This document shows positions 7,761 to 59,329 of a stretch of DNA of 64,000 nucleotides, piece after piece; position 1 is the first letter of the stretch; every line of letters starts with the position of its first letter. This DNA is from an uncultured Gammaproteobacteria bacterium (GTDB lineage Bacteria; Patescibacteriota; Microgenomatia; Levybacterales; GWA1-39-11). The notes beneath the pieces were generated by a model. That model was not told where the DNA came from. It did no database searches and saw only the letters and a list, made by a program, of their open reading frames with translations. The stretch is from positions 25,307-89,306 of the forward strand of contig CAZAJO010000004.1 in the NCBI GenBank assembly GCA_964485575.1, read 5' to 3'. A program made the position numbers and the translations under genes.

Positions 7761-7784
7761 TACAACGAAGTAAGTGGATTAATC

Positions 7785-7878: not shown

Positions 7879-7889
7879 ACTTCTTGGCA

Positions 7890-8498: not shown

Positions 8499-8564
8499 TG
8501 GTGCAACACATCCTACGGTGAGCTACTCGCTCACCCCGAACCCCTAGTTTTTGGAGGTGCCCAC

Positions 8565-8897: not shown

Positions 8898-8922
8898 CGC
8901 CCTACCTGCGTTTTCAACCAAG

Positions 8923-8955
8923 AGGCGCCCTTCGGGGCGCCTTACCTTTCTTTGA
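8923..8955 (+). terminator. Intrinsic terminator after acpP-like gene
   Basis: aggcgccc-ttcg-gggcgcct hairpin with UUCG tetraloop, followed by tacctttctttg. Confidence 0.6.
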
Positions 8956-8989
8956 CTCTTTTTCAAATTTGAGATACCATTAACCTTAT

Positions 8990-21600: not shown

Positions 21601-24600
21601 AATTCAACGCTAATGGAACTATACCTGCTTTTTCGACAAATCCTGCCTCTCTTCCTGATGGTCATCAAGGAAGCGGTATAACGTATGGTAATGGCTATAT
21701 CTATATTTCCGGAGGATTTGCTACTGACAATGTAGCTTATGGATCAATTGCAAGAGTGTCTCTAGCTGCTAACTTAGACCTGTTAGGGTTGACCTCAACA
21801 AGTATAGCGAGTTCATCTGGGCTTGCTGGTGGAGGTAGTATCTTTGCAGGTAATATATTTGCCAAAAATCTTGAGGTAGGTGGAAGCGGAACCGTTTGGG
21901 GAAATCTTGCAGTATCAGATACCCTTTCGGCCAAAACTCTATCAATTTCTGGTCGGATTACTGGTAAAGCCCTCACTATTATTAACGAAACAGGTAATCA
22001 GGCTATATTTTCTGCATCTGCTTCCGGAGTTACTAAATTTACCATCGGCAATGATGGACAAGTCATGATAGGCAACATTGCTGCTGACCCTTCAACTGCC
22101 TTGGGAGCAGGATCTATATATTACAACACAGTAAGCCAGGCTCTAAAATTCTATAATGGTTCGGCATGGGCCACAATAGGTACGGGGAGCTCATCGTCAG
22201 GTCCATTTGGAGTACTTCAAGGAGCAATCGTTCCGACAAATACGACGTATGACTTTCTCCTTGGAGGAACAGCAACATCCTCTGCTAAATTCGCCGTACT
22301 CAATCTTTCAGGAACAGCAACTACTGTTGCATCGGTATCTGGCAACTTGGTTGTTATGCCTACAAATGGTACAGGAGGACTCTTGTCGATTGGTACGACA
22401 AATCCTTCTTCCAAATTACACATATTTGAATCTGTTAGCGATGTTGCAGTAACTATCGAGACGCAAGGATCAAACAAAAGTGCTAACCTAAATCTGCTTA
22501 GCACCAGTAATACTGCAGGACAAATATCCCATTTTGCTTCAGGAGTACGACAATGGATGATTGGTAACAATGGGGACATCACAGCTGGTGGAATTGGCAT
22601 ATATACTACTTCAAGTAACGCTAACCGGCTTGCCATATCTTCTACAGGCAACGTAGGGATTGGAACGGCGCTCTCTCCAACAGGAGTAAATCCTACGTCC
22701 CCCCTTCAGGTATATGGACTGAGTACTCAACCTATCGCTTCAATATCAGGTAAAACTTCGGGACCAACCCTTCTTCTAACAAATGATGGAAGCGGTGACA
22801 TACTAGCCGCTTCAGTATCCGGAGTTCAGAAGTTCAGGATCAACGCTACTGGCGATCTTATTATTGGAGACGGATCAGGGAAAATATACGGAGGAGGATT
22901 TGACCCTCTCTATACAATCGATGGCAAGAAATTTTCTACATACGCTTCAAGCATCAATGGTATGAAAGAAGAATATATCGGTACTGCAAATCTTGCCTAT
23001 GATCCTGCCGCTGGAGGATATGCTTATACCCTTGATTTCAACAATTTTGAGTATGGTACTGAGTTATGGACTTTCTCTCGGGTAATCGATCCGGATCTTA
23101 CTAAGGTCAATGTACTTCTCACACCCACTTCTCAAGCAAGGACCTGGTTCAGGCGTGACCCGGTCAACAGAAAACTCATACTCTATTCAGACAGACCTAC
23201 GTCAGTCACATACAGGTTCACTGCACCTCGTTTTGATTATGCTTTGTATCCTTCTTCGGATCATTCCCATGATATTACTGGTTTACAAGCACCAGCGGCT
23301 CCAAACACTACCGGGACAGGTGAGGCTGATCCTATGGATTCTTTCTTTGCATCTCTTTCCATACAATTTAACAATGGGATGTTCACGATACTTGATGGAT
23401 TTGGCAACTTAGTTCATAGGGTCGATGGGTTCTCAAACCTCATAGCAGCAAATCTTGAGGCTGGTTTTATCCACGCAAGGAATTTGGCTGCAGATACTTT
23501 TTCAGCAGGAAGTGCATCATTGGGTAATGCAACAGCAAATACTTTTGCAGTAGCTGCGAATACAATCACTATTGGTGGACAAGATATCAGGCAATTTATC
23601 ATAGATACTGTTACTGCAGCAGGATTTGGCCAAAATACAATCATTTCCCCTCTTGCTGAGGTAGAAACAATAAAAACAAATACTATCAGGTCTCTTACTG
23701 AAGGTGGAGATATAAATGTGAAAGGAAAACTCATCACAGAGTCAGACAGATCGGCTACTGATAGTTCAGTAGTCTCACTTGACGTGAGAGGATCAGCAAC
23801 TATTTCAGGCTCACTAGCAACAAATTCTATCCAAACTAACGATGCGACTATAGCTGGAACCCTTCGCGCAGGAAACCTTATTGCTGACAATATCCAAGGG
23901 CTTGAGGATAAGATTTCCTCAGTAGCCTCACAATTCGTCAACAATCATGCAGCAACTCTAGCAGTAGGTACTGTACGGGCTGATTTTGGCATATTTGAAC
24001 AAGGAATAACCTCAATGGGACCAGTGACTGCCAATATCCTTACTGCAACAGATCAATTGGCCGTAGGAAATAACTTTACAATCTCAAACAATGCAATAAA
24101 TACAGTAGGATCTGATCTTGCCATACAGTCTTTGAGACAAGGTGCTATAGCATTTCAGGGTGGGCTTATCCGCATGGATACAGATGGCAATATGACGGTC
24201 AACGGTAATTTCAACCTTCTCGGCGAAATTGATGCGGTATACGGAGTATTTAGTGGTACTCTCACTACCCCAGCCCTTACTACAGATCTCATTTCACCTG
24301 TAGCTGATTCGAATATCTCTCTTTCATTCAAAGATTCTAAATTTAATATTCAGAATTCCAAAACTGCTTCCGGAAGTGCTGTGCTATCCATAGACAATAA
24401 AGGGAACATACAGTCGTCAGGATCTGCAACATTTGCAAAACTCAATTTCAATCTAGTTGGAAAGGCTGAAGCAACAAGTCTTTCAGAAGCGGTAGCTACT
24501 GGAAGCGCAGGTTTTGCTTCACTCAGAGCCGGACAACCAGAACTAACCATAAAGAACAATATCATTACATCAAAATCATTGATCTATATCACACCATTTG

Positions 24601-24737
24601 GAAATACTGACAACAAAGTCCTTTATCTTCTCCGCCAAATACCCGAATCAGAAACCGAGGATGGCTCTTTCACTGTCGGAGTTTCAGGTCCGGTCCCAAC
24701 ACATGATATGCAATTCAACTGGCTGATCGTGAACTAG
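12654..24737 (+). CDS. Giant 4027-aa surface protein: two N-terminal integrase-type SAM-like domains, one TM helix (about 13767..13835), long tandem beta-strand repeat region, Kelch-type beta-propeller, C-terminal region
   Basis: Single uninterrupted ORF. N-terminal KNTIKNYVSDVRHFIAWF and ITVKNYLSDISGFARWY match the phage-integrase N-terminal SAM-like pattern. Hydrophobic helix YAFVHYVHFALLVIFAAGVGVALY. The motif ILAASASGVSKFVIKNDG recurs about a dozen times. Confidence 0.85.
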   Translation: MELLELFKRQLASKSGSSSKNTIKNYVSDVRHFIAWFEAITGSKFDPSSVTTDVILLYQNGLGGLVLNGQLQSGTQLSASSMKRHLSSIRKFFTVLEAENVVRENPFTKIITEESVEPTDYWHLKSFKDYLMLGNASKITVKNYLSDISGFARWYEEAILPTIESPLSSNQGFYLITQSVVEDYRKRLVEIQNAAPRTINRKLSALRRYLEFATRKGFITNQEISVSSVEADIADDVADLPKVALSEMSEKLSPQKRSYSNIPPVRLIQKLLINPYLLLEEGAANAITGFLIGKKVTGIANLPQKLSAQIATKNALRIQNQGISTLLGVRNIEKEFYAPDKVSLSGLPVHQKLIHHVRFTRPNWYKRYHNYAFVHYVHFALLVIFAAGVGVALYQNLVVQKQTPTFAAATAPPRILSFQGRLTDALDNPITSPQPVRFMIYNSLAATGAAELWEETRTISPDQDGIFSVLLGSDSTGANASSCGSFPPGSPYNTACLIPSTVFSDNSQIWLGVTIANSTELAPRQKIATVGYATNSEFLQGLPPTSAVSSFVNAVLALDSTGSFNLNDGIEHTFQVSNGTLTLKAQTLNLTTSLGTNGNIILNPEGLGKVDIQKPIINNSNTGNLVRGGVEINDRFGVLATESAVAAFIVNNNTTGGDIFAASSSGTTKFKIANDGSITSGFYTGQNAVLYGTQTTGLIAQATTASTGLCLQSGASTPTWGTCGSSYWNLTTDNGALTPFSSTLDLLIGGQSTASAKFAFINNASGAPTASISGNLAIAVPTGASGANLFNIFNGGSLNFQTSGGGNAGLTSRLFIANDGRIGIATTSPIAKNALDVRGISGTGSTATISARSSFAALVVNNDGLGDIFAASASGVQNFVVKNNGDIIVGPDGGGKITAAIIDPYLVQNQKTTGITSLTLQTMGGAGADIIFSNQSSDLVHILQNGNVGIGVTNPTTAKLVVGGDIGADVVGRNIGSLSIPFNNLYANNIIATGPVSGFWGQTLGSLYPANPTVDLLIGSSATSTAKFAVLNINTGTPTASVSAQNAGGQALVLASDGSIQTTRRNSLAIGGSSTGSIQFLPNNNSVNLFLTGSNAAIGNQTPQAALDVSSSSLISSVVNKIVFGSIGTAMGSLGYDGSSFNEIRIGATSNVGLELITNDTVRGYFTATGLFGLGTVSPVAQLQVNGTNGSNATVIINQGNNGDILAASASGTTKFVIKNNGIASSSAGFTIDGLGALQSTNFQTLTIGGNSTGNVVVSPNNGSGQIQFTNFTSAGGLLYTGATGILAQTNVGSGTQCLLGGTTPTFGTCGGPFRELTAFGTIVESNTTEDFLLGGVATSSAKFAVLNIAGGTPTASVSAQNAGGQALVLGGDGTIQAVRNNNLTLGGNTTGSLVLAGTSIQLSATNPIIDLTTASTLSINTTTNRPITTGTGLTTLGGNLTVNGATTSLASTAITLTGSSPIIDLTSGTTLSINTTTNRPITTGTGLTTLGGNLTVAGATTTFSNATPVLTSNTDTSLTITPNGTGNLILTSDLDTGVKIGASTNTLAPLSVSGGIGGNALSIFNQINGTDILAASASGVSKFVIKNDGTASSSAGFTVDGIGTIQSTRNQTLTVGGGSTGNLVLGKASQTLTLPGFTTNGGLLYTNASGVLAQTGTGGATQCLLGGAGTPTFGSCGTGVNSSPFYEIPAPIGVIAQANLTEDFLLGGLATSSAKFAVLNIAGGTPTASVSAQNAAGQALVLSGDGTIQSTRNNSLTLGGNTTGSLVLAGTSVQLSATNPIIDLTSSSTLFINTTTNRPITTGTGLTTHNGNLTVAGATITFSNASPIITSNTNTDLTITPNGTGNLILTSDLDTGVKIGSSTNTIAPLSVSGGIGSNALAIFNQINGTDILTASASGVSKFVIKNDGTASSSAGFTIDGIGAIQSTRNQTLTVGGGATGNLVIGRTAQTVTLPGFTTNGGLLYTNASGVLAQTGTGGATQCLLGGAGTPTFGSCGTGVNSSPFYEIAAQGIIVQGNTSEDFLLGATATSSAKFAVLNIAGGTPTASVSAQNAAGQALVLGSDGSIQSTRNNNLTIGGNTTGSLVLPGTSIQLTGNNPVIDLTTASTLSLNTTNNRPITTGTGTFTVGSGGTGTIAMNGSAITTTTTSVSLFDANATTINFGRAGTNNINLGGTSGALNVGNGGSYTIQTTSNGQLNVSAGSGLLTLNTLSNGAVTTGNGLTTLGGNLTVSGTTISLAGTSPTISTTGSNSLTLTAAGAGSLTLSSDSDSSIFVGNATTPAPLSISGGIGNNAALVLNQLNSTGNIFSASASGVSKFVIKNDGTASSSAGFTVDGIGNIQSTLNQTLTIGGGSTGNLILGKAAQTLTLPGFTTNGGLFYTNASGVLAQTGTGGATQCLLGGAGTPTFGSCTGGSNTSPFYEFQGAIVPGNTTEDFILGGTASSSARFIVNGLATGISPTASISATNGNGIYLSAQNGTIQSLRNNTLSIGGNTTGIVAINPLAANFTGIGTSNPIASLDVRGSLGIIGGGTLAVASISGRTSYAALAVDNLSTVGDLFTASSSSNMQFVIKNNGFVGLATAAPTARLDVNGSASISSALTFRTGSGSIQTTALNSLNIGGSTTGNLIFNPNGNNLIGAGTSSPRASFDIRNALGVVGGGTFAIASVSGRTSFAALTVDNSLGDLFTASSSGLTRFAISQNGNVGIGTGTPLYAFDVNKKTAAFNSGQDGTISSWTNTTDTGLSGQLEQFGLVFINGYVYHVGGYDAPSVLDTVRYARVKNDGTLDNWVTSPNVLPEARLWHGTVTVNGYIYSIGGHSSVASPTNPAVYYTKVNSDGTISSWGSTTPLPSPRIRITHSVATANGYIYVVGGENSSAQTTVWYTKVNADGTLGPWLTGSSLPVATSDNAVVVDNGYIYSMGGLAPAATNAIYYAKINYDGSIGPWIGNPNNLASADSMHSGIVVNGFVYILGGINNSTTVYYAKFNANGTIPAFSTNPASLPDGHQGSGITYGNGYIYISGGFATDNVAYGSIARVSLAANLDLLGLTSTSIASSSGLAGGGSIFAGNIFAKNLEVGGSGTVWGNLAVSDTLSAKTLSISGRITGKALTIINETGNQAIFSASASGVTKFTIGNDGQVMIGNIAADPSTALGAGSIYYNTVSQALKFYNGSAWATIGTGSSSSGPFGVLQGAIVPTNTTYDFLLGGTATSSAKFAVLNLSGTATTVASVSGNLVVMPTNGTGGLLSIGTTNPSSKLHIFESVSDVAVTIETQGSNKSANLNLLSTSNTAGQISHFASGVRQWMIGNNGDITAGGIGIYTTSSNANRLAISSTGNVGIGTALSPTGVNPTSPLQVYGLSTQPIASISGKTSGPTLLLTNDGSGDILAASVSGVQKFRINATGDLIIGDGSGKIYGGGFDPLYTIDGKKFSTYASSINGMKEEYIGTANLAYDPAAGGYAYTLDFNNFEYGTELWTFSRVIDPDLTKVNVLLTPTSQARTWFRRDPVNRKLILYSDRPTSVTYRFTAPRFDYALYPSSDHSHDITGLQAPAAPNTTGTGEADPMDSFFASLSIQFNNGMFTILDGFGNLVHRVDGFSNLIAANLEAGFIHARNLAADTFSAGSASLGNATANTFAVAANTITIGGQDIRQFIIDTVTAAGFGQNTIISPLAEVETIKTNTIRSLTEGGDINVKGKLITESDRSATDSSVVSLDVRGSATISGSLATNSIQTNDATIAGTLRAGNLIADNIQGLEDKISSVASQFVNNHAATLAVGTVRADFGIFEQGITSMGPVTANILTATDQLAVGNNFTISNNAINTVGSDLAIQSLRQGAIAFQGGLIRMDTDGNMTVNGNFNLLGEIDAVYGVFSGTLTTPALTTDLISPVADSNISLSFKDSKFNIQNSKTASGSAVLSIDNKGNIQSSGSATFAKLNFNLVGKAEATSLSEAVATGSAGFASLRAGQPELTIKNNIITSKSLIYITPFGNTDNKVLYLLRQIPESETEDGSFTVGVSGPVPTHDMQFNWLIVN
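16600..19950 (+). repeat. Tandem near-identical coding repeats (about 0.96 kb unit, 3-4 copies) inside the giant gene
   Basis: Stretches of over 300 nt recur almost verbatim, e.g. around 17400..17720, 18360..18680 and 19600..19920. The antisense ORFs in the track (16856..17350, 17867..18280, 18683..19129) are their mirror artefacts. Confidence 0.65.
20900..21750 (+). other. Six-bladed Kelch-type beta-propeller domain within the giant protein
   Basis: NGYVYHVGG, NGYIYSIGG, NGYIYVVGG, NGYIYSMGG, NGFVYILGG and NGYIYISGG spaced about 52 aa apart. Confidence 0.6.
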
Positions 24738-26001: not shown

Positions 26002-29000
26002 TTAATGACATGCTACGTTATATGAATGACTTGGGGAGACCTGTGATGTACACCCACTATTAGTAAAGTACCAATTAAAGTCGGTAAGACTGTAAGTACC
26101 TTGGTTAGAAGGCGCACTAGCCCCACAGGCCGATGGATGTTGACCAACAGTATGACCCGTACAATAGAGAATTGATCCAACTGAAGTACAAACACCAGTT
26201 CCATTATTATCTTTTATCCAGCCTGAACCAGTGGTAGTTCCAGTACAGTAGTCTACAGACTCTTTAACCGATGAGTTGTTACAATCATAGTCATAATCTC
26301 CATTCAACCCACTTCCTGTTGGGGTTGAGAAGTATAAGGTCTGTCCCGGAAATACATTTGCGTTAAGATCATAACAGTCAGCAGTTCCTGAAGCTGAAGC
26401 TCTGTATCCATATGCTAAGGATGAACCAGAGCAAACGGACTGAGAGCCACCGGTAGTGTAAGTGTCATTGTCTGCATCTGAGTATCCAGTTATATTTTGC
26501 CATTTCCCTCCATCGTCATAATTATTATTGTCACCATTGTTACCAGATTGTGCGCAATCTGTACCGGAAGACACACTTACACCAGGCCTTAAAGATGCAC
26601 CAGAACATATCTGTGATTGGAACGAAGGATTAACGCCGTCGCTATCGTTATCTGGATACCCTGTTGAAAGCATTTGATAGTAAGAGCTAGTAGTATCGTC
26701 ACAATCCGTATTATCGGTAGACCACCCTGAAGCAGGAGCTCCAGTTAAACACTGTACCTGCGATGTCTGAGCCAATGGTTTTATAGACATATTGATACCT
26801 AATATAGTTGTACCTCCAGGAGAACTCTGGTTAAACTGAGCCCAATAGGTAGCTTTATTTCCATTATATTTACGATATACTCCAACTAAAGAGTCATTTG
26901 AAGCATACTGAATAAAATAATCACTATACAATTCGTCCCCAAACCCAGGGGCTGAATAAAATACTTTTGAAGAACTCCCTGAATTAGACCCGCCAACTTG
27001 TAAATATAAATCGCCTGCAGTGTAGGCTATTGATGCATCTGAGACAGAATTATATGAACCAGCTGCTCTAATAGGAGCACTTGTTGCTACGTTACTAAAT
27101 GATGTAATAAATCCCTGAGAAGCACCGGTTGATGAGCTTAATGTGAACGCATATGAAGCCCCTTCACCGCTTGCATATTTGTACCAGACATCTAATCCGG
27201 TATTTGTTCCATTATAGGAACTTCTAACTAAATTCCATGTACCGCCACCCGCTGGAGCGCTGACTGTTCTATTACTCCCTCCTTCGTGCTCCACAACAGC
27301 TATCATAAACATACCATCGACTATATCAGCTGGTTTATTAATGGTTAGTGTCGTACCACTGGAAATCGATGCTTTAGTAGTAATCCCATTAGTAAAACTT
27401 GGTCCATTATTACCGTGTCCGTCCAAGTCATTATCAGAGTATACTGTTGTATTGGTACAGCTTGCCGGAGTTGTTAGATTAACTACATTTGATATTGCTC
27501 CTGCTCCTGCGGCATTTTTTGCCCTAACTGCATAACTATAATTTGTAGTTTGTGATACGGTTGAATCACTTAATGAGGTTGAAGCTGTGCTATTAAGCGT
27601 AGCTGAAGGGGTACAATTACCATTACATCTTAATAAGTCATATCCATTAGTAATAGCAGGTACCGCTCCACCTACTTGTGTTCCGCTCCACGATGCATCA
27701 ACCCTGTTGTAGACAGGTGCAGTTGCGCTAAACGATGAAGGTGCGCAAGGCGCACCGCTGGGATTGTCCTGACAGTCAGTCGTTGCTGAAAGTTTTTGCC
27801 CATCAGGAAGCCAGGTGTTCGCATTTGAGGTGTCTTTGTAATATGTTCTTCCACTCACCTGCGTTGGTGTTCCAACGCATTGCGCGGCTGCGGCTGCAGA
27901 GGTTTTATAACCATCATTATCTGCATCTGTTACTAATCCGTCAATAGTCCTAAAAGTGTAGGCGTTGTTAGGATTACAATCTACTGAAGCTGAAGCGCTT
28001 GCCATCTTCCAAGCATAATTATAATTTGTAGATAGGGTATTTCTTCTAACAAATTCAGATGCAGCTGATGGTGTTGAGCCTACATATTGGGTCTTGTCAT
28101 CCAGTATCCCATCACCGTCTTTATCATGGACAAATACTCCACCCTTCTTCAATGATCCTCCGCGGGCAATAACGAGTGATGAATTAGGCTTTTGGAGTTG
28201 GAAGCTTCCAAATGCAACTTGTTGTGAAGGACCAATTGTCATTTGCGCAGTTGTACTAAGAATTAGTGACCCTGTGTTAGTGGTTCCTGAACCTGTGTCT
28301 ACTCCATTGAAATTACCATTTAGGTTACAGGTTGCAGAGGCAGGAATTGTAAGATTTCCTGAAGCTGGTGGGTCGCAAGGACTTGCCGGACCGTCCCCTG
28401 TTGTAAATGTCGCAACTGTTGCTCCACCAGTCGTACCATTAGTATTTATAGCAAATGAGCAATACCAGTATTGTGTATTAGGCTCAAGAAATGTGTTGGC
28501 ATTTGGTGGTATGGTATAAGTAAATGTGTGTGGGCTACTATCTGCACCTATCACTACGTCATTTCCTGATGACTGAGGATACCGGATTCCAAGGCTGTCA
28601 CTATTACAATTTCCAGGAGTTGTAGTATACACCCTAAAGTGACCAGTTGAGGCTGAGGAATTAGGGTTGGCTACTCCAGACAGAGTTACGTAATACGAAT
28701 TGATACCTGTCGGTGAATTTGTGTCTACTCCAGTTGGATTTACATTCAAAGTAGTAAATGTTCCGACATTTGAATACCCATAACCCACCGAATTATGAGC
28801 ATACGCAACGAAAGAATAACCAGTATTTTGTGTAAGACCGCTTATTGTCTGTGTGAAGCCAGTTGTCGCTGTACCACCTTCAGGAGTACAAGTAACTCCT
28901 GTCCCACCAGATTGTGGATTTGAATTAGTTGTTGTTACTGAATAACAAATACCACGCGCGTCAATAGCTTGAGTTCCAGCTGATGTAACCGTGCCACCTA

Positions 29001-31137
29001 GAAGAGCGCTTGTTCCGGTTATTGATGCTGAAGTTGGTGTCGTCACAGTGGGTGGAGCAGCTGTACATACTGAGAGTGCATAAACTTCTACTTCGTTAGG
29101 TGTAAAGGTACTTGTTCCGCTTAAGTAAGTGAATGCACCCTGACTGGATGGTTGCTGCCAATAACTTGAGTTATTATTATTTCCCCAGGATGTATTCAAG
29201 TTTGCACTATTAGGTGCGGCCAAATTGCCTCCACCACCCATGTAGGGTCCATAAGAACTTGCACCCAACAACATATAATCAGAGTAGTTAACCTGCGCAA
29301 GCTTATAATTGTCTGAGATACTAAAAAGCAGTGCTCCGGCACCGGCGATCCAAGAACCTGCTGAATTCCATGATTTTGGAGCATATGCTCCAAATACTTT
29401 ACTATTTGCAGAGTTTCTAATCAAAATCAATGTCGGCCCCTGATTATCAACTGCTGTATGGAAATTTGCTAGTGTCCAACCATTTACAGTTCCTTTATAA
29501 AGCAATGTTCCTTGCATTTTTGATGTACCCAAAAATCCTTTTACTGTTGTTGAGTCTGCAGAATTCGCTATACCTGATCCTGGGAAAAGACTACACGCAG
29601 TAGATGAAGTTGCAGACAATGTAAATGAAACAACAGATGAATAACCCGGACTACCTATGGAAGTTGATTGAAAACAATACACATAAGTAGCACCTGCTGT
29701 AAGCCCAGTTATTTGAGCTGACCGAGGAAAATAATTTCCATTGTTATTACCGGACGATGAATTTGATGTTGTATTTGGCAGACTGCTACATGCAGATCCT
29801 GTCGTATAAGTTGGGGATATTCCATACCGGAAGTAACCATTTGAAGAAGCTCCATAACTGTTAATACCAGCAGTCAGAACTGCTGTTGTATCGTCTACCA
29901 AAATTGCCCCATAGTTACTAACGGCAGGCACAGGAAATGTCTGCTCTCCCCCAACAGTATTGATGAATTTACCTGCACCACTACCCTGATTTTGAACTGT
30001 GTAATATTCAGTATTAAGCCACCCGGCAGTTCTTGCTACATTGGAAATTCTAACCTCATCTATGCTACCCAAAAATGCTTGCGATGTATTCCCATCATAT
30101 CTTCCACCAATACCTAATCCGTTAGTACCATCATAATTTCCCAAAGTCACACCGGGAGATGTTGAATATGCAGCCAAATTAAAATATATGTTAAATGCAG
30201 ATCCATTATAAGTAGATGCTAAATACGTCCAGGTGACATCAGATAAGCTGCTTGTAGTAGCGTACAGTGGATAAGAGGTCGTATCACTAGCAATTTGACC
30301 TCCAATTTCAGTATCGCTACCATTATTAAACTGAAGACCATAAGGGCCATAAGGACTTGCACTGTTTTGTCCGAACCAAACCGGTTTTCCCCAGGTATCT
30401 TGAGCTCCATTTCTATATACCCAAGCACTTAGTGTCACATTTGAAGGCTTAAGACTAGCATGGTTAGCTACTGTAACTCTACCGCTTGAACCGTTGGACG
30501 AGATTCCATTTCCGACTTTTCCTGCTACGCCCGTTGTTGCTCCGACATTTGTACCATTATTGGCATTTGAAGTAGAATCATTTAAATTGGCTCCCAAATG
30601 CCAAACTCCAGCATAGTTACTGCTCCAAACATCGGTCTTATTTTCTTGGGTAGAACTGATACTAGAATTTCCATAGTATACATACAAAACAGTATTTGAA
30701 CCTGAATAAAGATTTAATACTTTAACCCACATTTTAATGGTTCCTGTTGTTCCATCATAACTTTCTATCTCGTGCGATAATTTTGTACCCTCAGCATCAT
30801 CTGTAAAGATGATATCGAATCCACTTGCATTATTGACCCTTCCCCCATTAGCAGTTGTTCTTAGTTGCGAATCTGTTATAGCAACAAGAACCGGGAAATT
30901 ATTGAGAGTCGACCCACCAGGAACCTGCGACCCATCGATAGTCAACTGCTTTTTATATATATATCCTGTGTCATACCAGGCTTCGGATTTATGTACACCT
31001 AGAGGAGATGATTCATTAATGCCATCAGGTGTTAATATATTTGTGTATTGAGCAATAAAACCAATACTTAAAAAGACAAATAAAAGAAATACCTTTGATT
31101 TTTTCATACTGAATTTTTTAAATATATTTCTCTTCAT
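26002..31137 (-). CDS. Giant 1711-aa secreted protein with LamG/ConA-like lectin domain and Cys-rich C-terminal region
   Basis: N-terminal signal peptide. GVWHLGANLNDSTSNANNG...GSIDEVRISNVARTAGW fits the laminin-G-like jelly-roll pattern. Thr/Ser/Gly-rich throughout. Confidence 0.8.
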   Translation of the reverse strand: MKRNIFKKFSMKKSKVFLLFVFLSIGFIAQYTNILTPDGINESSPLGVHKSEAWYDTGYIYKKQLTIDGSQVPGGSTLNNFPVLVAITDSQLRTTANGGRVNNASGFDIIFTDDAEGTKLSHEIESYDGTTGTIKMWVKVLNLYSGSNTVLYVYYGNSSISSTQENKTDVWSSNYAGVWHLGANLNDSTSNANNGTNVGATTGVAGKVGNGISSNGSSGRVTVANHASLKPSNVTLSAWVYRNGAQDTWGKPVWFGQNSASPYGPYGLQFNNGSDTEIGGQIASDTTSYPLYATTSSLSDVTWTYLASTYNGSAFNIYFNLAAYSTSPGVTLGNYDGTNGLGIGGRYDGNTSQAFLGSIDEVRISNVARTAGWLNTEYYTVQNQGSGAGKFINTVGGEQTFPVPAVSNYGAILVDDTTAVLTAGINSYGASSNGYFRYGISPTYTTGSACSSLPNTTSNSSSGNNNGNYFPRSAQITGLTAGATYVYCFQSTSIGSPGYSSVVSFTLSATSSTACSLFPGSGIANSADSTTVKGFLGTSKMQGTLLYKGTVNGWTLANFHTAVDNQGPTLILIRNSANSKVFGAYAPKSWNSAGSWIAGAGALLFSISDNYKLAQVNYSDYMLLGASSYGPYMGGGGNLAAPNSANLNTSWGNNNNSSYWQQPSSQGAFTYLSGTSTFTPNEVEVYALSVCTAAPPTVTTPTSASITGTSALLGGTVTSAGTQAIDARGICYSVTTTNSNPQSGGTGVTCTPEGGTATTGFTQTISGLTQNTGYSFVAYAHNSVGYGYSNVGTFTTLNVNPTGVDTNSPTGINSYYVTLSGVANPNSSASTGHFRVYTTTPGNCNSDSLGIRYPQSSGNDVVIGADSSPHTFTYTIPPNANTFLEPNTQYWYCSFAINTNGTTGGATVATFTTGDGPASPCDPPASGNLTIPASATCNLNGNFNGVDTGSGTTNTGSLILSTTAQMTIGPSQQVAFGSFQLQKPNSSLVIARGGSLKKGGVFVHDKDGDGILDDKTQYVGSTPSAASEFVRRNTLSTNYNYAWKMASASASVDCNPNNAYTFRTIDGLVTDADNDGYKTSAAAAAQCVGTPTQVSGRTYYKDTSNANTWLPDGQKLSATTDCQDNPSGAPCAPSSFSATAPVYNRVDASWSGTQVGGAVPAITNGYDLLRCNGNCTPSATLNSTASTSLSDSTVSQTTNYSYAVRAKNAAGAGAISNVVNLTTPASCTNTTVYSDNDLDGHGNNGPSFTNGITTKASISSGTTLTINKPADIVDGMFMIAVVEHEGGSNRTVSAPAGGGTWNLVRSSYNGTNTGLDVWYKYASGEGASYAFTLSSSTGASQGFITSFSNVATSAPIRAAGSYNSVSDASIAYTAGDLYLQVGGSNSGSSSKVFYSAPGFGDELYSDYFIQYASNDSLVGVYRKYNGNKATYWAQFNQSSPGGTTILGINMSIKPLAQTSQVQCLTGAPASGWSTDNTDCDDTTSSYYQMLSTGYPDNDSDGVNPSFQSQICSGASLRPGVSVSSGTDCAQSGNNGDNNNYDDGGKWQNITGYSDADNDTYTTGGSQSVCSGSSLAYGYRASASGTADCYDLNANVFPGQTLYFSTPTGSGLNGDYDYDCNNSSVKESVDYCTGTTTGSGWIKDNNGTGVCTSVGSILYCTGHTVGQHPSACGASAPSNQGTYSLTDFNWYFTNSGCTSQVSPSHSYNVACH

Positions 31138-31551: not shown

Positions 31552-32496
31552 TTATTGATTCGCTCTTATTGACCCTGTTTGGGTATTCCCACGATCATCT
31601 GTTCCTATAATGTCATATCCATAGTGAGTATATGTGTCAGTTACCTGCCAGGTCCCCGTCCAAGTTCCACTCTGAGCGGTTCCACCTGTCCTTGATAGTG
31701 TGAATTCACGTGCATCTCCATCTGAATAAAGGATTGCCTTCATTGATGTAATGTTACCAACTGTGTCGTCAGCAAGAACCTGTATTGATTGTGCCATACC
31801 AATAGTCTGATATAACGGCATGACGGTGACTTGATAGATATCGGGGTTGACTCCTGCTTGATTTCCTAAGTTGTAAGTGACCGATCCTACTGGTGGTGTT
31901 GGGGTTGGGGTTGGAGTTGCTGATGGCAATGGTGTTGGTGTTGGAGTTGGACTGATAGACTCAATTCCACCTGCAATCGAAGCAGCTGAGGCAAGAGCAC
32001 TACAATTTACTGCTCCTGACAGGGTACATGCCCATACACCACTGGTATATCCGCTAGGTGTACAGTTGGATAATGATGAAAGTGGACAGACATTTGTCAG
32101 AGCCGAAGATTTACTAACCTGAGCAAATATTACATTCCATTGTGGACAAGAAGCAGCTGACTCAGTCCTATATTTATAACACTCACCATTCCCACCATTA
32201 CATTTAGGATCCTGTGGGACCTTCTTCATATAAGTAGTTGCATTGACTTTCCACTCCTGACCGAAAGGAAGTTGAGATGGATAACACTTTGTATCGTTGT
32301 AGTAAAGGTCTACTGCTGTCTTTATAGCTTGAATGTCAGCGAGTCTTTGAGAGTCCTGACCTTTATTTATTTGAGCGATAGGATTTAGGGTCAAAAGTAC
32401 TCCTCCAATGAGTGTTGCTAGTATAGTTCCTGCAACTAATACCTCAACGAGGGTAAATCCGAATTTTTTTTGTGATTGGGCAGTTTTTATATTCAT
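31552..32496 (-). CDS. Type IV pilin-like / pseudopilin protein (class III prepilin signal) with TP-repeat linker
   Basis: KKFGFTLVEVLVAGTILATLIGG is a prepilin cleavage/methylation motif (G|FTLVE). Also a TPTPTPLPSATPTPTPTPP linker. Confidence 0.7.
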   Translation of the reverse strand: MNIKTAQSQKKFGFTLVEVLVAGTILATLIGGVLLTLNPIAQINKGQDSQRLADIQAIKTAVDLYYNDTKCYPSQLPFGQEWKVNATTYMKKVPQDPKCNGGNGECYKYRTESAASCPQWNVIFAQVSKSSALTNVCPLSSLSNCTPSGYTSGVWACTLSGAVNCSALASAASIAGGIESISPTPTPTPLPSATPTPTPTPPVGSVTYNLGNQAGVNPDIYQVTVMPLYQTIGMAQSIQVLADDTVGNITSMKAILYSDGDAREFTLSRTGGTAQSGTWTGTWQVTDTYTHYGYDIIGTDDRGNTQTGSIRANQ

Positions 32497-38607: not shown

Positions 38608-39825
38608 CTATTCCTTGCCTAAGCCGTTGAGGAATTCTTCGTTTGTTTCAGTCTGTTGGAGTCTTTCTATAAGAATTTGAGTACGCTCATCAGGTCCTAA
38701 TACATCCATCATTCTTCTCATGGTGGCAATCTTTTTGTAATCCTTCTCAGATAACAATAGCTCTTCTTTTCTGGTGCCTGAACGCTCAATATTAATTGAA
38801 GGGAATATGCGTCGTTCTGCAAGTCTACGGTCAAGATGAAGTTCCATATTTCCAGTTCCCTTAAACTCTTCATAGATAAGATCATCCATTCTGCTTCCGG
38901 TATCAACTAATGCAGTTCCGATAACAGTTAGAGATCCACCCTCTTCACATTTTCTGGCTGCTCCAAAAAATCTTTTTGCAGGCCAAAGTGCAGCAGGATC
39001 AAATCCTCCCGTTAATGTTCTTCCTGACGGTTCAATTGAAAGATTGTATGCGCGTGCAAGTCGCGTTATTGAATCAAGCAGAATAACCACATCTGCTCCA
39101 CCTTCAACGAGTCTTTTCGCTCGATCAAGAGCAATTTCAGCTGCATTGGTTTGTGCTTCCGGTGGTTCATCAAAATTTGAGGCTACAACCTCGCCCTTAA
39201 CTGATCGTGATATATCTGTTACTTCCTCAGGGCGTTCTCCAATAAGACATGCCATCAGATGAACTTTGGGGAAATTTTCAGCAATTCCTGCTGCTAGATC
39301 CTTTAGAATAGTAGTCTTTCCTGCTTTAGGAGGGGATACTATCATTCCTCTTTGACCAAAACCAATTGGACTTACGATGTCGATGATGCGTGATGACAGT
39401 GGTGTTTTACCGGTAGAAAGAACAAGCTGCTTTATAGGATATATAGGAGTCAGGTCTTCAAAATAAACTCTTTTGACACCCTCGGCAGCTATTTTGCCGT
39501 TAATTTTTTCGATCTTCAAAAGTCCATAATATCTCTCGTTGTCTTTTGGAGGACGACCTAGACCTTCAACAAAATCCCCATTTCGTAGCCAAAAACGTCT
39601 GATTTGGGAAGAAGATATATAAATATCTTTTTCTGAAGGTCTGAATTTTGGGCGTAAAAACCCGTGTCCTTCAGGCTTTATGTCTAAAATTCCTGCAACT
39701 ACTTCAGTTGCTTGGTCACCGCGTGGACGTCCATACTCTCCCCTATCTTCAACCATAGGAGTTGCCTCCACAGGCTGTGCTTGGGATTCATCAATGTCTT
39801 CTTGAGATTTCTTTACTGGACTCAT
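38608..39825 (-). CDS. rho: Transcription termination factor Rho
   Basis: Walker A GQRGMIVSPPKAGKTT, plus the RNA-binding and ATPase cores (LIGERPEEVTD). Confidence 0.9.
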   Translation of the reverse strand: MSPVKKSQEDIDESQAQPVEATPMVEDRGEYGRPRGDQATEVVAGILDIKPEGHGFLRPKFRPSEKDIYISSSQIRRFWLRNGDFVEGLGRPPKDNERYYGLLKIEKINGKIAAEGVKRVYFEDLTPIYPIKQLVLSTGKTPLSSRIIDIVSPIGFGQRGMIVSPPKAGKTTILKDLAAGIAENFPKVHLMACLIGERPEEVTDISRSVKGEVVASNFDEPPEAQTNAAEIALDRAKRLVEGGADVVILLDSITRLARAYNLSIEPSGRTLTGGFDPAALWPAKRFFGAARKCEEGGSLTVIGTALVDTGSRMDDLIYEEFKGTGNMELHLDRRLAERRIFPSINIERSGTRKEELLLSEKDYKKIATMRRMMDVLGPDERTQILIERLQQTETNEEFLNGLGKE

Positions 39826-40088: not shown

Positions 40089-40787
40089 ATGAATTTTAAA
40101 AGATTTGTCGCAACATTTTTTGCTACAGCAGCTTTTCTTGCAACCGCAGGAAGCGCTATAGCTTCTGGTACCGGATATGGTACAAGTAACTGCCAAGTAA
40201 TCTACGGCGGAGGACAAGTTTGTCCAACAACCCTACAATTCTCTATAGATAAGAAAGTTCTTGCACCTACTAAAGGTGGGTCATTTGTTGATAATCTTGG
40301 ATTTAATGATGCAAAATTCCAACCAGGAGATCAGGTTTCATTTAAAATAACTCTAAAAAATACCGGAGACAAGACAATTGACCAAATAACTGTTGTTGAT
40401 ACTCTTCCAGCTTATCTTACATTTACATCTGGACCTGGAACTTATGATGCAACTTCAAGAACCGTTACCTATATCATAAAGAATATTGCTGCTAACCAAT
40501 CAAATGATCAGACAATAGTTGCTACTATCGCAAATGTTGATGCACTTCCAAAAGATCAAGGAGTTATGTGTCTTACAAACAATGTAAAAGGTAATGACAA
40601 TCAAAGTGACGTAGCAAACGATAGCTCTTCTTTTTGTATCCAAAAAGAAGCTATGACTCCAAAAGTATTCACAACAGTTCCACCTAAATCTATCCCAAAT
40701 ACCGGACCTGAAATGCTTCCTTTGCTTGGGCTTATCCCAGCTGGAATCGCAGGATTTACACTTCGAAGAAAATCAAAACTCGGATAA
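40089..40787 (+). CDS. Secreted surface protein with C-terminal sortase-type sorting signal (IPNTG + hydrophobic segment + basic tail)
   Basis: Signal peptide. C-terminus IPNTGPEMLPLLGLIPAGIAGFTLRRKSKLG. Confidence 0.6.
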   Translation: MNFKRFVATFFATAAFLATAGSAIASGTGYGTSNCQVIYGGGQVCPTTLQFSIDKKVLAPTKGGSFVDNLGFNDAKFQPGDQVSFKITLKNTGDKTIDQITVVDTLPAYLTFTSGPGTYDATSRTVTYIIKNIAANQSNDQTIVATIANVDALPKDQGVMCLTNNVKGNDNQSDVANDSSSFCIQKEAMTPKVFTTVPPKSIPNTGPEMLPLLGLIPAGIAGFTLRRKSKLG

Positions 40788-41244
40788 CGCCCGAGTCTAC
40801 GAGGGCGCAAGCTTTGCTTACGCCCACTCGTTAGGCTTGAGGTTAGAGAAGGCAGCTTTCACCAAATCACCCCAACAAATTCCCAAAAAGCTTTCTTCCC
40901 TGACTTTTAAGTTAGGAAAGTAGTATGCAGCAGACTATCCATTAGCTGGATAACTTTGCACCATATACCACTTTGTTCTTTGAAAATTGGTATACAGAAA
41001 TTATTTTTGGAAGACACTTCGGTGTCGGATTGAGCGTTCCGTTGGCATGAAAGCTGCACAATGGGCCGCTCAACCCGGCACTGTAAGTTACAACCGGGAA
41101 ACTTCACTTACAAGGAGAACATATTGGAGGCTCGATCTCCGCCCACCATTCCCCAACCGCAAGGTTAGGATCAAAGAATGTGAGCGGTATCGTCCGCCTA
41201 CATTCTTCCTTTAAGTCAGAGTTCAGTTCCGGAGGAACAACACC

Positions 41245-42177
41245 TTGTCTAGGTCATCCCAAGTTTGGGTCGTGTTCAGTATCATCGTCACCGCTATCGC
41301 GGTTGGCTGGGGTATGCACACGCTCGACAACACGGATTCTGCCATCGCGGACGAACCGTCCACGACGGCAACCGCCACAGTGGCGGCCACCCAGACGCCC
41401 AACCCGGGCGACAAGAAGGACCAGCCGCCGGCGCCTAGCGCCGTCTGCCGTCTTTCGGTCATCGGGCCTTGGTCCGAGATCAATGGCACCGCCCCCTACC
41501 GCATCGAAGTCGGTGGAGGCGATGTTCAGCACATGGACTTCTACCCCACGATTGGGGTCCAGTCCATCAGCTACATCGTCGACTCCCTTCCACGCGGCGG
41601 CGTCGCCGCCAAGTGGTACGGGTACGGCCAGATGTGGCAGGGCAACAAGCACGAGTGCGCTAACTTCGACTACGTCAAGGACGCCGTCGAGTACGCGAAG
41701 GGTAACGCCAGCGGCCAGCCCGGCCGCCTCCAGCAGGGCCACAGCGGGATCGTCATTGATCTCCGCGGTGGCAACTTCAAGATCATCGAGAAGCCGAAAG
41801 GCTGGACCGAAGATCAGATCGATGCCCTCATCGCCCTCCACAAGGCGGCGATGAACCCTGCCAATCCGCCTACTGCTGGTGCTGTTCAGGCTCCCAGCGG
41901 CAAGTGCGAAGCCGTCCGCGTTATGCAAGACGAAACCAAGCGCCCCAACGGCGCCAACAGTATCGTTAAGCTTGGCGGCGACGGCCACGCCTACGTCTTC
42001 GAACTCTGGAATCCAGAAGTTCAGGGCGGCAAGGAGATGAAGGTCCTGATTCCTGCAGGCGAAAGCCGTACGTTCACTGGTTTTGGTGGCGCCGCATGGC
42101 AATACCCAACCACGTGCACGGCTCAGCAGATCAAGGACGACTTCAACAACAACCCGAAGCCTGCCTATACCGGTTAA
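41245..42177 (+). CDS. GC-rich, N-terminally membrane-anchored hypothetical protein (310 aa); TTG start with GGAGG RBS
   Basis: ggagg at 41231..41235 and ttg at 41245. TM VWVVFSIIVTAIAVGWG. G/C-dominated third codon positions, unlike the flanks. The antisense ORFs in the track (41254..42102, 41180..41854) are GC-composition artefacts. Confidence 0.6.
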   Translation: MSRSSQVWVVFSIIVTAIAVGWGMHTLDNTDSAIADEPSTTATATVAATQTPNPGDKKDQPPAPSAVCRLSVIGPWSEINGTAPYRIEVGGGDVQHMDFYPTIGVQSISYIVDSLPRGGVAAKWYGYGQMWQGNKHECANFDYVKDAVEYAKGNASGQPGRLQQGHSGIVIDLRGGNFKIIEKPKGWTEDQIDALIALHKAAMNPANPPTAGAVQAPSGKCEAVRVMQDETKRPNGANSIVKLGGDGHAYVFELWNPEVQGGKEMKVLIPAGESRTFTGFGGAAWQYPTTCTAQQIKDDFNNNPKPAYTG

Positions 42178-42208
42178 TCCGGTGGCCGACTTCTCTGTAT
42201 ACCAAGCT

Positions 42209-42239
42209 CGGGATGGTCCCCTTCGGGGGGCCGTCCCGG
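42209..42239 (+). terminator. GC-rich UUCG-tetraloop hairpin immediately after the island-2 gene (terminator-like; weak U tract)
   Basis: cgggatggtcccc-ttcg-gggggccgtcccgg. Confidence 0.4.
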
Positions 42240-42347
42240 CAAGAGAGGGGAGGCGCTAACACCGCTTCCAAAGAACAAACCGGGCATGCCCGGCAGAACG
42301 CTTTGGAGTCGATTGCCTCCCCCCTTTCCCCCTGTACATAAAAACTT

Positions 42348-42578
42348 TTGTGTACAGAGCCGAAAGGTATGAAAATTTTACAAATAATAGTAATGGGAGT
42401 CATAGGAATAGGCCTTATTGGGGTCGTATATTTTCTTGGCATGAAGCATATCCAAAATGAAGCAATAGACAAATGTCTAGCCGTTGGAAAAGCACAATTT
42501 GTGAGAGATGGCCAGACTCTTACTGGTCCTGATGGATATTGGTATCAGTACTGTATGAAAGAAAAAGGGCTCAAATAA
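42348..42578 (+). CDS. Small single-TM protein (hypothetical)
   Basis: ILQIIVMGVIGIGLIGVVYFLG helix; native AT-rich codons. Short ORF, could be spurious. Confidence 0.4.
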   Translation: MCTEPKGMKILQIIVMGVIGIGLIGVVYFLGMKHIQNEAIDKCLAVGKAQFVRDGQTLTGPDGYWYQYCMKEKGLK

Positions 42579-46898: not shown

Positions 46899-47554
46899 AT
46901 TCTCCCCAAGTTATCCACATTTAATTTGTGTGTCAAAATATATTGATTTGATAGGCTAAAATGAATACATACTAACTCTAGGTCTACATCATAATATATC
47001 ACTTTTGTTATAGGTTGAAGAGGTTGACAAGATGTGTTATACTTTTGACAATTATGAAACTTTTTTCATTCACCACCAAAAAACGTTCCAAGAACAATAG
47101 AAGTAAAAGGATATTTGCGGACTATCAACAGGAGTCTGTAAATAACTACGGAAAACAACAATTAAAATCACTCATCAGTCGGGGCATTAGTGTCCAATGG
47201 TAGAGAACTGGTGAGGCAGGATCTTTTAAAATAACGGGTTTTAGTTAACAGTTAACTTTCTTTCTTTGACGAGGAGAAAGAAAAAGAGCATCGCTTTCGC
47301 TACTCATAAATAAATTCAAGTACGAAAAGCAATGCTCTTTTAACTGTTAGCTATTAGTCTTTAGGCAGGGTAAGACTATGCTAAGAATCAAATTAGCAAA
47401 TTCTACTCTTCCTTGTCAAGAAAACATGATGAAGCGGATTGTGATCATTTAGATTGTTAAATGAACACTTTTCACGAAGGGTATTTGGTCGGGAGTGAGT
47501 GAGTTGGGCAGGCTTTCTCACTTCCGATTAAGTACCCTTTTTTAGTACCCAAAA

Positions 47555-58720: not shown

Positions 58721-59329
58721 ATGAAGATTATTGTTGGACTCGGCAACCCTGGGGATAAATATACAGGTACCCGCCACAATATTGGGTTTGCTACACTTGA
58801 TCATCTCCTAAAAAAATACGAACCAGTCGACCAATCGGTCTGGGAGGACAATAAAAAAACTAAATCTCAGATCAAAAAACTGTCTATTGGGCAATACCAG
58901 GTACTTCTTGCAAAGCCTCAAACTTTTATGAATAACTCTGGCATGGCACTTTCCTTACTCACCCAATACTTCAAGATAAAACCTGAAGAAGTAATTGTTA
59001 TTCATGACGATCTTGATCTTCCTCTCGGAAAAATCCAAATTAGGTTTGGTGGAGGAAGTGCTGGGCACAATGGTATCGAATCAGTGATAGAAGCTTTAAA
59101 AACGGATAAATTTAGCCGAATCCGCATGGGTATTGGACATCCAAGAGGAAGAAACCCGATTGATGAGATTAGAAGCCACGACTCGGTCAGTAATTACGTT
59201 GTTTCACATTTTGTTGAGGGTGAGCATAAAGACGTCAGGAATATGATAAAGCATGTTCAGAAGAACTTAGAGTTACTACTTGAGCATGGAATTGATACCT
59301 TCATGAGCAAATTTAACTCGAAGAGTTAG
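58721..59329 (+). CDS. pth: Peptidyl-tRNA hydrolase
   Basis: IIVGLGNPGDKYTGTRHNIGF and HDDLDLPLGKIQIRFGGGSAGHNG. Confidence 0.85.
   Translation: MKIIVGLGNPGDKYTGTRHNIGFATLDHLLKKYEPVDQSVWEDNKKTKSQIKKLSIGQYQVLLAKPQTFMNNSGMALSLLTQYFKIKPEEVIVIHDDLDLPLGKIQIRFGGGSAGHNGIESVIEALKTDKFSRIRMGIGHPRGRNPIDEIRSHDSVSNYVVSHFVEGEHKDVRNMIKHVQKNLELLLEHGIDTFMSKFNSKS

Follow-up and report, generated by a model that had tools for sequence, protein, structure and literature searches.

A GC-rich gene unit with a boxA-like element and covarying arms in an AT-rich Levybacterales genome: a putative rRNA-operon-style arrangement around a variable surface protein gene

Why should one gene of an AT-rich bacterium, together with its non-coding flanks, be much richer in G+C than its neighbours? 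The question is raised by contig CAZAJO010000004.1 (GenBank assembly GCA_964485575.1; GTDB lineage Patescibacteriota, Levybacterales), from which a stretch of 64,000 nt was analysed (positions 25,307 to 89,306 of the forward strand; hereafter the window). G+C content was 0.595 at 41001-42000, against a window mean of approximately 0.40, and in 100-nt windows the rise extended from about 41000 to about 42340, non-coding flanks included. The open reading frame (ORF) of this island, encoding 310 amino acids, has a G+C content at third codon positions (GC3) of 0.77, compared with 0.19-0.38 in 34 other genes of the window (those of a second GC-rich segment, island 1, excepted). A preliminary description of this DNA had reported a GC-rich island with GC-dominated third positions, which was fully borne out (60% GC in a genome of 40%), and had seen in it a foreign-looking unit. 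As a claim of recent insertion the latter was not supported, since the unit was found to be GC-rich and syntenic in all relatives examined and lacks an integrase, a tRNA and a direct repeat.

The reading developed here is that the island is a self-contained unit in the style of an rRNA operon, built around a protein gene and combining boxA antitermination, a closing helix and a structured, GC-rich mRNA, a proposal whose chances we judge to be even. Established by computation are the features of the sequence, how far they are conserved and covary, the excess in fold stability, the mosaic alleles and the shared synteny; mRNA stability and protein function are what we infer. The elements that define the unit are the following:

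40975-40985, + strand: boxA-like element GTTCTTTGAAA, fitting GYTCTTTRANA, a predicted NusB/NusE loading site by its consensus
40987-40998, + strand: 5' arm TTGGTATACAGA, in the position of boxC, a perfect 12-nt complement of 42194-42205
41245-42177, + strand: coding sequence (CDS) of the 310-aa protein, TTG start, TAA stop, characterised by GC3, homologues and excess structure over synonymous shuffles
42194-42205, + strand: 3' arm TCTGTATACCAA, 17 nt past the stop codon

Covarying arms, a boxA-like element and excess mRNA structure

In every locus, the GC elevation was confined by the two arms, with sharp compositional boundaries. Arm length varied from 9 to 15 nt across units, and a 9-nt core enclosed the GC-rich segment throughout. 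Five core variants were found, each with its matched partner (GGTATACAG, GGTGTACAG, GGTACACAG, AGTATACAG and GGCATACAG). Among the related loci (numbered with an L), L005 carries two units, one with the arms GGTGTACAG / CTGTACACC and another, located after the GT-C gene and around a different gene, with AACGGTACACAGGAA and its complement; the arms of L009 (AAAAAGTATACAGTT and its complement) surround a 5.2-kb island of four genes, those of L008 (AAAGGTATACAG) an SPFH gene plus a gene of the same family as the window ORF, and unit 1 of L010 has AGGCATACAGG. In an alignment of ten units, double changes were detected at 8 of the 15 pairs and one-sided changes at none, and the covariation score (0.231) was reached by none of 500 shuffles (0.114+-0.023), slid controls scoring 0.03-0.09. 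When the upstream 800 nt were compared with the downstream 520 nt, this bracket was the longest inverted repeat in nearly every locus, the longest such repeat of background window genes having a median of 7-8 nt. As its place is after the stop codon and ahead of a terminator-like hairpin, the 3' arm should be transcribed. An inverted-repeat scan revealed a second pair, 40972-40985 with 42266-42279. The pairing suggests that a long-range helix may form in vivo and, possibly, be cleaved by RNase III. An inner inverted repeat (ACTAATAGGC / GCCTATTAGT) was also seen nested in the bracket of L008 (3992-4000 / 7014-7022) and L009 (1035-1044 / 5975-5984); the SPFH/band-7-like gene of L008 (4682-5695) was assigned by reading its sequence. 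The arms, which read CTGTATACC / GGTATACAG, did not match the integron attC core (RYYYAAC / GTTRRRY), and no intI is present.

Directly 5' of the left arm, a conserved box was found in every unit, both in the window and in its relatives. The box of the window agrees with the published boxA consensus GYTCTTTAANA (PMC5725501) at 10 of 11 positions (A8 being G), a consensus that is gamma-proteobacterial and varies by phylum. Box GTTCTTTAACA of L006/L015, L008 and L009 matches it perfectly, and GTTCTTTGACA of L001, L007 and L013 at 10 of 11 positions. The box of L010 unit 1 is GCACTTTAACAA, read as GCACUUUAACAA for comparison with the boxA of E. coli, GCUCUUUAACAA. Moreover, GTTCTTTGAAAA is identical to the first 12 nt of primer F2, a universal primer for the 16S-23S rRNA spacer of Mycoplasma (PMC4312986). 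In the fetched loci the boxA pattern occurred almost exclusively at this position, and when the window was compared by BLAST with L005 and L008, two distant loci, no intergenic sequence aligned except the block of boxA and arm. The F2 site itself is presumably the boxA of the Mycoplasma spacer. No nusB was seen in the window; Rho, the proposed target of antitermination, is encoded two genes upstream of the unit (38608-39825), with a Rho_RNA_bind and an ATPase domain. BoxA and the 5' arm may be transcribed and boxA bound by Nus factors, for which the conserved G.U pairs of a + strand hairpin further upstream (leader hairpin 1, below) offer indirect support. The boxA region (40972-40982) is also exactly complementary over 11 nt to the 5' inner arm and loop (42269-42279, CAAAGAACAAA) of the downstream nested stem T2 described below, a complementarity kept in genus-level loci and deleted in L001, and this complement might act as an 'anti-boxA' that ties up boxA at the unit's end.

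The third property of the unit concerns the CDS itself. Fold energies summed over 150-nt windows were compared with those of synonymous-codon shuffles that preserve protein and codon usage, with the following results:

Window CDS: z = -7.4
Window CDS, shuffling within 50-codon blocks: z = -6.5
Three other allele types: z = -4.1, -5.1 and -6.5
Family gene of L005: z = -5.3
Family gene of L018: z = -4.2
SPFH gene of L008: z = -3.3
Clp_N gene of island 1: z = -4.7
Nine ordinary low-GC genes of the window: z = +0.55 to -1.64
Six genes of a contig with 69% GC: z = +1.3 to -2.65 (N-domain borne by a kinase, -0.77)

The gene, its leader and trailer, and its relatives

The ORF is a real protein-coding gene, because it shows a codon-position bias, has numerous family representatives and yields confident structural domains. 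Third positions changed 2.6 times as often as first and second positions (35% versus 13.5% with changes), a full search with hidden Markov models retrieved 242 cluster representatives, and AlphaFold2 predicted two confident domains (pLDDT 80-90). In addition, there are 18 close homologues, protein homology reaches down to 27-34% identity with a kinase fusion included, and ORF indels between alleles are in frame. The ORF had been described beforehand as having a TTG start and a GGAGG ribosome-binding site, and the latter was located at 41231-41235, 9 nt ahead of the TTG. Two overlapping ORFs in other frames (41254-42102 on the - strand, 282 aa; 41180-41854 on the + strand, 224 aa) were dismissed as artefacts of GC-rich sequence without homology support.

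The protein comprises an N-terminal transmembrane (TM) anchor (residues 5-22), a Thr/Ala/Pro-rich linker, an N-domain (about 67-205) with invariant C68, E88, GG, QH96, D98 and GHSG165-168, a second linker and a C-domain (about 229-310), which exists in two types and is variant A in the window. The hydrophobic helix followed by the linker fits a membrane-anchored extracytoplasmic protein, a prediction compatible with the surface exposure proposed earlier. No significant match was found for the protein among Pfam and NCBIfam profiles, none of the solved folds in the PDB matched the N-domain, and the 310-aa protein as a whole had no significant structural match. It appears to be an N-terminally anchored two-domain member of an unnamed family. 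Neighbouring secreted proteins of elevated GC contain the C-domain as well, and a Pkinase protein (P0089) carries the N-domain, at 34% identity, after its TM segment, in an arrangement resembling the extracellular sensors of Ser/Thr kinases of the PASTA type. However, the N-domain is not a PASTA domain, has no Pfam, NCBIfam or PDB match and, in the window, is not joined to a kinase. A Ser/Thr kinase whose extracellular part is the family N-domain is encoded in L019 (3303-5384 of contig SRR33230238_171605, 69% GC), its neighbours being an FHA-ABC transporter and a CRISPR adaptation module of the RT-Cas1/Cas2 kind.

The gene is surrounded by the following non-coding structures, the first two modelled with RNAalifold on seven loci:

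40835-40912, + strand: leader hairpin 1, stem of about 23 bp, in a boxB-like position
40930-40959, + strand: leader hairpin 2, GCAGACUAUCCA-UUAGC-UGGAUAACUUUGC
41008-41244, + strand: structured 5' leader of 237 nt, a rod-like hairpin (41012-41100) plus three smaller hairpins
42206-42240, + strand: T1, GC-rich hairpin with a UUCG tetraloop, terminator-like, without a U tract
42243-42326, + strand: T2, three-level nested stem with compensatory changes in the inner stems
42332-42357, + strand: T3, hairpin CUGUACA...UGUACAG with a 12-nt loop, 12 nt 5' of a small TM protein gene

In leader hairpin 1, the arms are invariant, the loop varies and has indels, and five G.U pairs are conserved; as these pairs work only in + strand RNA, the hairpin would act there. 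Every pair of leader hairpin 2 is invariant in the seven loci, which therefore provide no covariation evidence. The 5' leader contains the stem GACAC-UUCG-GUGUC (41013-41026), the stem UUGAGCG/CGCUCAA (41030-41036 / 41068-41074) and the hairpins GGAGG-CUCGA-UCUCC (41127-41141) and AAGAAUGUGAGCGG/CCGCCUACAUUCUU (41174-41207), and the Shine-Dalgarno (SD) sequence lies inside a small conserved hairpin, GUUCC-GGA-GGAAC (41226-41238). The consensus fold of nine orthologous loci has 67 pairs, three of which, in the 41174-41207 hairpin, show compensatory double changes. Downstream of the gene, the UUCG hairpin has its stem at 42210-42237, and both one-sided and double changes preserve the pairing of T1; the outer stem of T2 (GGGGAGGC at 42247-42254 with GCCUCCCC at 42315-42322) encloses UCCAAAG/CUUUGGA and CCGGGCAUGCCCGG. 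The preliminary description had claimed a structured leader and 3' element; both are present, covary (double compensatory changes in 6 of 53 pairs of the 3' element) and are more folded than dinucleotide shuffles (z = -6.06 for 41005-41260 and -3.62 for 42175-42350). All the stems it listed were likewise recovered, although the imperfect one lies at 41174-41207, 2 nt below the position given. At the gathering threshold Rfam yielded no match in the window, leader and 3' element included, and a search by E-value found nothing either, the best sub-threshold hits within 40700-42450 reaching at most 21 bits (thresholds 33-99). Conservation of the 450-nt spacer 5' of the ORF was 0.8-0.9, like that of the rho coding sequence, whereas the spacer between rho and the next gene reached 0.5-0.6. 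A leader peptide in the 5' region was rejected, since indels there are not multiples of three. The arms of T3 were also seen to covary and to resemble the bracket core, like a bracket with an empty loop; the corresponding empty-site hairpin, CTGTRYAC...GTRYACAG, had no match in the window.

The order of genes was common to all contexts: rho, a DUF11 protein with an LPXTG-like sorting signal, the family gene, a TM protein of about 70 aa (42370-42578 in the window, 69 aa, conserved), a GT2 glycosyltransferase and a GT-C protein of about 1100 aa, which agrees with the LPXTG-like and glycosyltransferase neighbours named at the outset. This synteny, together with a GC-rich gene, was found in at least 12 independent assemblies, with a gene GC of 0.535-0.64 against 0.35-0.41 in the flanks of every locus. 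Flanking DNA was 97% identical to the window in L003, approximately 80-85% in L001, L006 and L007, and approximately 65-73% in L005 and L008; as synteny is the same at 65-73%, the unit predates family-level divergence. The junctions recurred in independent ENA, Logan, JGI and NCBI assemblies and are thus not assembly artefacts, and the orientation of the unit relative to flanking genes was constant in every assembly showing a flank. A 21-nt word of the leader, scanned in metagenomes, retrieved L012 as the sole locus, and no relatives were found in phage, plasmid and viral-contig collections. There is no tRNA in the window, no integrase was found at the unit, and no direct repeats or target-site duplications were found at the island borders. 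Low-GC orthologs were not seen at the locus; orthologs are high-GC, which suggests that the composition is maintained rather than a trace of recent transfer. Polarised third-position changes point the same way: in the ORF, changes from G or C (S) to A or T (W) outnumbered the reverse 37:11, the flanks mirrored this in the opposite direction (rho, W>S:S>W = 70:26), and plain amelioration toward genomic GC would need at least 7.8:1. This argument against plain amelioration is only suggestive, as the test uses parsimony and is biased by base composition. Taken together, these comparisons argue for a conserved gene unit for a variable surface protein, not a recent foreign insert.

Within this conserved frame, the alleles are mosaics exchanged between lineages. 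Four N-domain types (0.51-0.68 identical to each other in nucleotide identity matrices) and two C-domain types (A versus B, 0.41-0.47 nucleotide identity) occur in different combinations, and one module stands out:

41870-42192, + strand: exchangeable C-terminal module (linker 2 and C-domain), with recombination breakpoints at both ends (about 41870 and about 42192)

The C-module of the window is 97-99% identical to that of L006/L012/L015, although the genomic background of these matches the window at only about 80%, and only 43-54% identical to that of L003, whose genomic background is 97-100% identical. Natural transformation is a plausible route of exchange, because ComEC and ComEA are encoded in the window. 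This competence set (1985-4710, - strand) comprises a ComEC-type Competence domain (2824-4041) and a ComEA-like HHH_3/SLBB protein (4048-4710); a weak match to a metallo-beta-lactamase fold was seen beside them, and a pilin-like N_methyl protein at 31552-32496.

A candidate rRNA-like mRNA cassette and its alternatives

According to the rRNA-operon-style reading, transcription would reach the unit in one of two ways, by read-through from the DUF11 promoter, a strong one, or by starting at a weak promoter immediately 5' of boxA. The polymerase would pass the two leader hairpins and boxA, the nascent boxA would load NusB/NusE and other Nus factors, and the Nus-loaded RNA polymerase would resist Rho. 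The boxA-bound complex would hold the 5' arm until the 3' arm emerges, and the two arms would then pair in a long-range closing helix like the processing stalk of 16S and 23S rRNA. The enclosed mRNA would be compact, long-lived, slowly translated and uncoupled from transcription, its translation being throttled by the TTG start, the structured 5' untranslated region (UTR) of 237 nt and a hairpin that partly sequesters the SD, and past the 3' arm it would end in the conserved hairpins T1-T3. Selection for RNA folding would account for the high G+C of the unit within an AT-rich genome, as it does for rRNA. The gene product would be anchored by its N-terminus outside the cytoplasm, with an N-domain of sensor type and a C-domain that is portable, and its alleles would be swapped by homologous recombination, with the conserved leader, anchor and trailer as recombination anchors.

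Several known systems share parts of this design. In rrn operons, a boxB hairpin, boxA and boxC follow each other in this order, the boxC strand pairs downstream of 16S to create an RNase III site, and the Nus complex is believed to retain this strand and deliver it there (PMC8632103). Similarly, the unit has hairpin(s), boxA and then a strand with a downstream complement, and encloses a GC-rich, highly folded RNA in a genome that is AT-rich and encodes Rho. However, the enclosed RNA encodes proteins, several units with unrelated cargo occur per genome, and the helix is no long stalk but has 9-15 bp, a length that rises to about 23 bp in genus-level loci when the second pair is included, and no G.U pairs. 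BoxA is also found upstream of protein genes (PMC5725501) and shields CRISPR arrays from Rho (PMC7665894). Like the unit, the suhB and rpsJ 5' UTRs (Baniulyte 2017, PMC5725501) and CRISPR arrays (Stringer 2020, PMC7665894) have boxA 5' of a poorly translated or untranslated, Rho-exposed transcript other than rRNA. Nevertheless, they have no long-range closing helix, compositional island or excess CDS structure, and the boxA of suhB lies within about 50 nt of the start codon, compared with about 260 nt upstream here. Further systems for comparison are the stabilising 5' UTRs of the mRNAs of abundant surface (S-layer) proteins and the 5'-3' fold-back of hok mRNA. These resemble the unit in their long structured leader, 5'-proximal stem, surface cargo, end-to-end pairing and restrained translation, but are unrelated in sequence; the unit has, in addition, a boxA and a CDS that is GC-shifted and over-structured along its whole length. 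In the literature on GC-rich islands or invertons in Patescibacteria no precedent was found. Although the parts are individually known (boxA, processing-stalk logic, stabilising UTRs, mosaic surface proteins), their combination, with boxA and a covarying helix around protein cargo, a coextensive compositional island and genome-wide recurrence with different cargo, was not found described.

Several observations weigh against this reading. The approximately 95 base pairs of the arms are all Watson-Crick, with no G.U and no one-sided change, and the core is conserved among units with unrelated cargo, which fits a protein-recognised DNA site at least as well as an RNA helix. Arms of 9-15 bp are short for RNase III, which needs about two helical turns; the duplex reaches about 23 bp only if the second pair (40972-40982 / 42269-42279), which L001 lacks, is counted. 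Chance alone should produce the boxA pattern 1.4 times per 64 kb, so its weight rests on positional conservation. In genus-level loci, the region of boxA and arm also reads as a sigma-70 promoter (TTGACA, 17 nt, TATTTT), in which case boxA and the 5' arm would remain untranscribed except by read-through. As the primary reading of the block at 40972-41007, the promoter was nevertheless dropped, since distant units keep box and arm without a -10 and the box fits boxA. RNAalifold gave no convincing common fold for the CDS of four alleles (covariation term +4.9); the maintained feature is being structured, not one specific structure. Finally, enolase and ribosomal protein S1 have ordinary GC3 and are not GC-rich, so that high expression alone is insufficient for the composition, and it was rejected as the cause of the codon bias.

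One alternative, which we consider unlikely, is inversion, in which the arms are the DNA sites of a site-specific invertase, a recombinase encoded elsewhere that recognises the shared core GGYRYACAG, and the segment 40999-42193 flips relative to fixed upstream signals, giving ON/OFF phase variation of the surface protein. As in known invertons, short, perfect, sharply bounded inverted repeats of 9-15 bp, without mismatches of the G.U type, surround a hypervariable surface protein, and the repeat core is common to several loci; within the same genome it is shared by units with unrelated cargo (units 1 and 2 of L005 and of L010), as expected of the sites of one recombinase. Strand exchange would also require the arm identity seen within units, and the promoter-like -35/-10 of genus-level loci straddles the left arm. 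Yet no inverted copy was found, all assemblies with flanks showing the same orientation, and there is no tyrosine or serine recombinase among the scanned ORFs of the 64-kb window. The element beside the left arm matches an RNA signal, brackets span up to 5.2 kb and four genes, or the ACP-type housekeeping cargo of island 1, and inversion leaves both the GC content and the excess structure of the CDS unexplained. The sharp compositional boundaries at the arms could instead mark the ends of mobile cassettes, themselves non-autonomous, whose termini are short inverted repeats with asymmetric subterminal motifs beside them. Having arisen in a gene pool of higher GC, such cassettes would have spread by transposition or transformation, and their GC would reflect that origin, renewed by repeated allele import. 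Unrelated cargo (the family protein, SPFH, Clp_N plus ACP, other secreted proteins), differing locations (L005 unit 2 after the GT-C gene, island 1 beside LeuRS), the N-domain fused to a Ser/Thr kinase in a bacterium of 69% GC, the C-module shared at 97-99% by lineages 80% identical genome-wide and the competence genes would all suit this idea. It is improbable, however, given the syntenic position over genus- and family-level divergence and the lack of target-site duplications, of a transposase and of relatives in phage, plasmid and viral collections; moreover, independent terminal repeats are not expected to covary within a unit, third positions do not change as in amelioration, and genuine high-GC genes showed no excess CDS structure.

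Frequent recombination, evident in the mosaic N and C modules with their two breakpoints, could raise GC by itself through GC-biased gene conversion at a hotspot, the flanking structures being ordinary UTR hairpins, and the elevation does reach the non-coding flanks. This has little chance of being the explanation: the effect is very large (GC3 0.77 versus about 0.30), C-domain type A, the latest module to be exchanged, is less structured than any other part and not the most GC-rich, and conversion predicts neither boxA, nor the covarying bracket, nor an excess structure of z = -7. For the earlier view, that of a foreign island acquired recently or a chimera of assembly, the compositional deviation and the non-ATG start make a very poor case against identical junctions in at least 12 independent assemblies, GC-rich syntenic orthologs at 65-97% flanking identity, a leader as conserved as the rho coding sequence and the lack of mobility genes. 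Least credible of all is a large structured non-coding RNA whose ORF is a GC artefact, suggested by a GC-rich, highly structured region with long ORFs on both strands; it is at odds with changes at 35% of third versus 13.5% of first and second positions, protein homology down to 27-34% identity that extends to a kinase fusion, in-frame indels, confident AlphaFold2 domains and the absence of an Rfam match.

Returning to the rRNA-operon-style reading, a broader and more tentative proposal, which we think possible though rather less than probable, is that such islands belong to a class not recognised so far, 'rRNA-like mRNA cassettes' of bacteria that are AT-rich and probably ultrasmall and competent. 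Members would combine boxA and a covarying closing helix with GC-rich, hyper-structured RNA under selection, Nus-modified and ribosome-uncoupled transcription, interchangeable cargo (variable surface proteins, SPFH, Clp_N plus ACP) and modular exchange between lineages. If the rRNA-operon-style model is right, the Nus/boxA machinery and the 'stalk' logic of rRNA would have been co-opted for a set of protein genes, extending the target range of boxA antitermination, and local GC in an AT-rich genome would be set by selection on mRNA folding and not by gene origin, so that compositional 'islands', routinely scored as horizontal transfer, would need rereading. It would also offer a testable whole-transcript design that joins protection from Rho and RNases with throttled translation. 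The uncharacterised, hypervariable and recombining surface protein, whose N-domain also serves as a kinase sensor domain in other bacteria, is a candidate determinant of host or phage interaction in a poorly known lineage.

Island 1 and other features of the window

Island 1 (7760-8960) had been described as similar in character to the island discussed above, and it does carry a boxA-like box (GCACATTAAAA, 7994-8004) and matching arms (AAAACGCAGG at 8002-8011, CCTGCGTTTT at 8905-8914), so that box and arms fall within 7994-8011 and 8905-8914. The arms enclose a gene for a Clp_N-domain protein (8043-8498) and one for an acyl carrier protein (ACP) with an N-terminal extension (8565-8897, GC3 0.74), the right arm lying 8 nt past the ACP stop and being followed by a UUCG terminator hairpin. 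Excess structure was found for Clp_N (z = -4.7) but not for ACP (z = -0.7). The GC-rich stretch at 7760-8000, upstream of the bracket, had a fold z of -1.2. A leader or repeat shared between the two islands was rejected, as they have no DNA similarity.

Other observations were made elsewhere in the window. A non-coding stretch of about 105 nt in the spacer between the GT-C and pyruvate kinase genes (47281-47382) is 87.6% identical to 12074-12178 of L008, whose coding flanks are only 65-72% identical; it had no Rfam match at the gathering threshold and is perhaps a small RNA or a regulatory element that lacks annotation. The leucyl-tRNA synthetase, LeuRS (4767-7760, - strand), contains a NUDIX domain inserted after the editing domain (residues 398-510; Pfam E = 3.9e-08). 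Three giant ORFs (12654-24737, 26002-31137 and 59326-62100; 4027, 1711 and 924 aa), with a G+C content of 0.52-0.58 at second positions and low GC3, probably encode large surface proteins, and a 13-nt A/T-rich inverted repeat between the regions upstream and downstream of the 1711-aa gene is probably due to chance. The gene content, with a sortase-type signal, competence genes, giant surface proteins and PMT_2/GT-C, is rather monoderm-like or ultrasmall-like.

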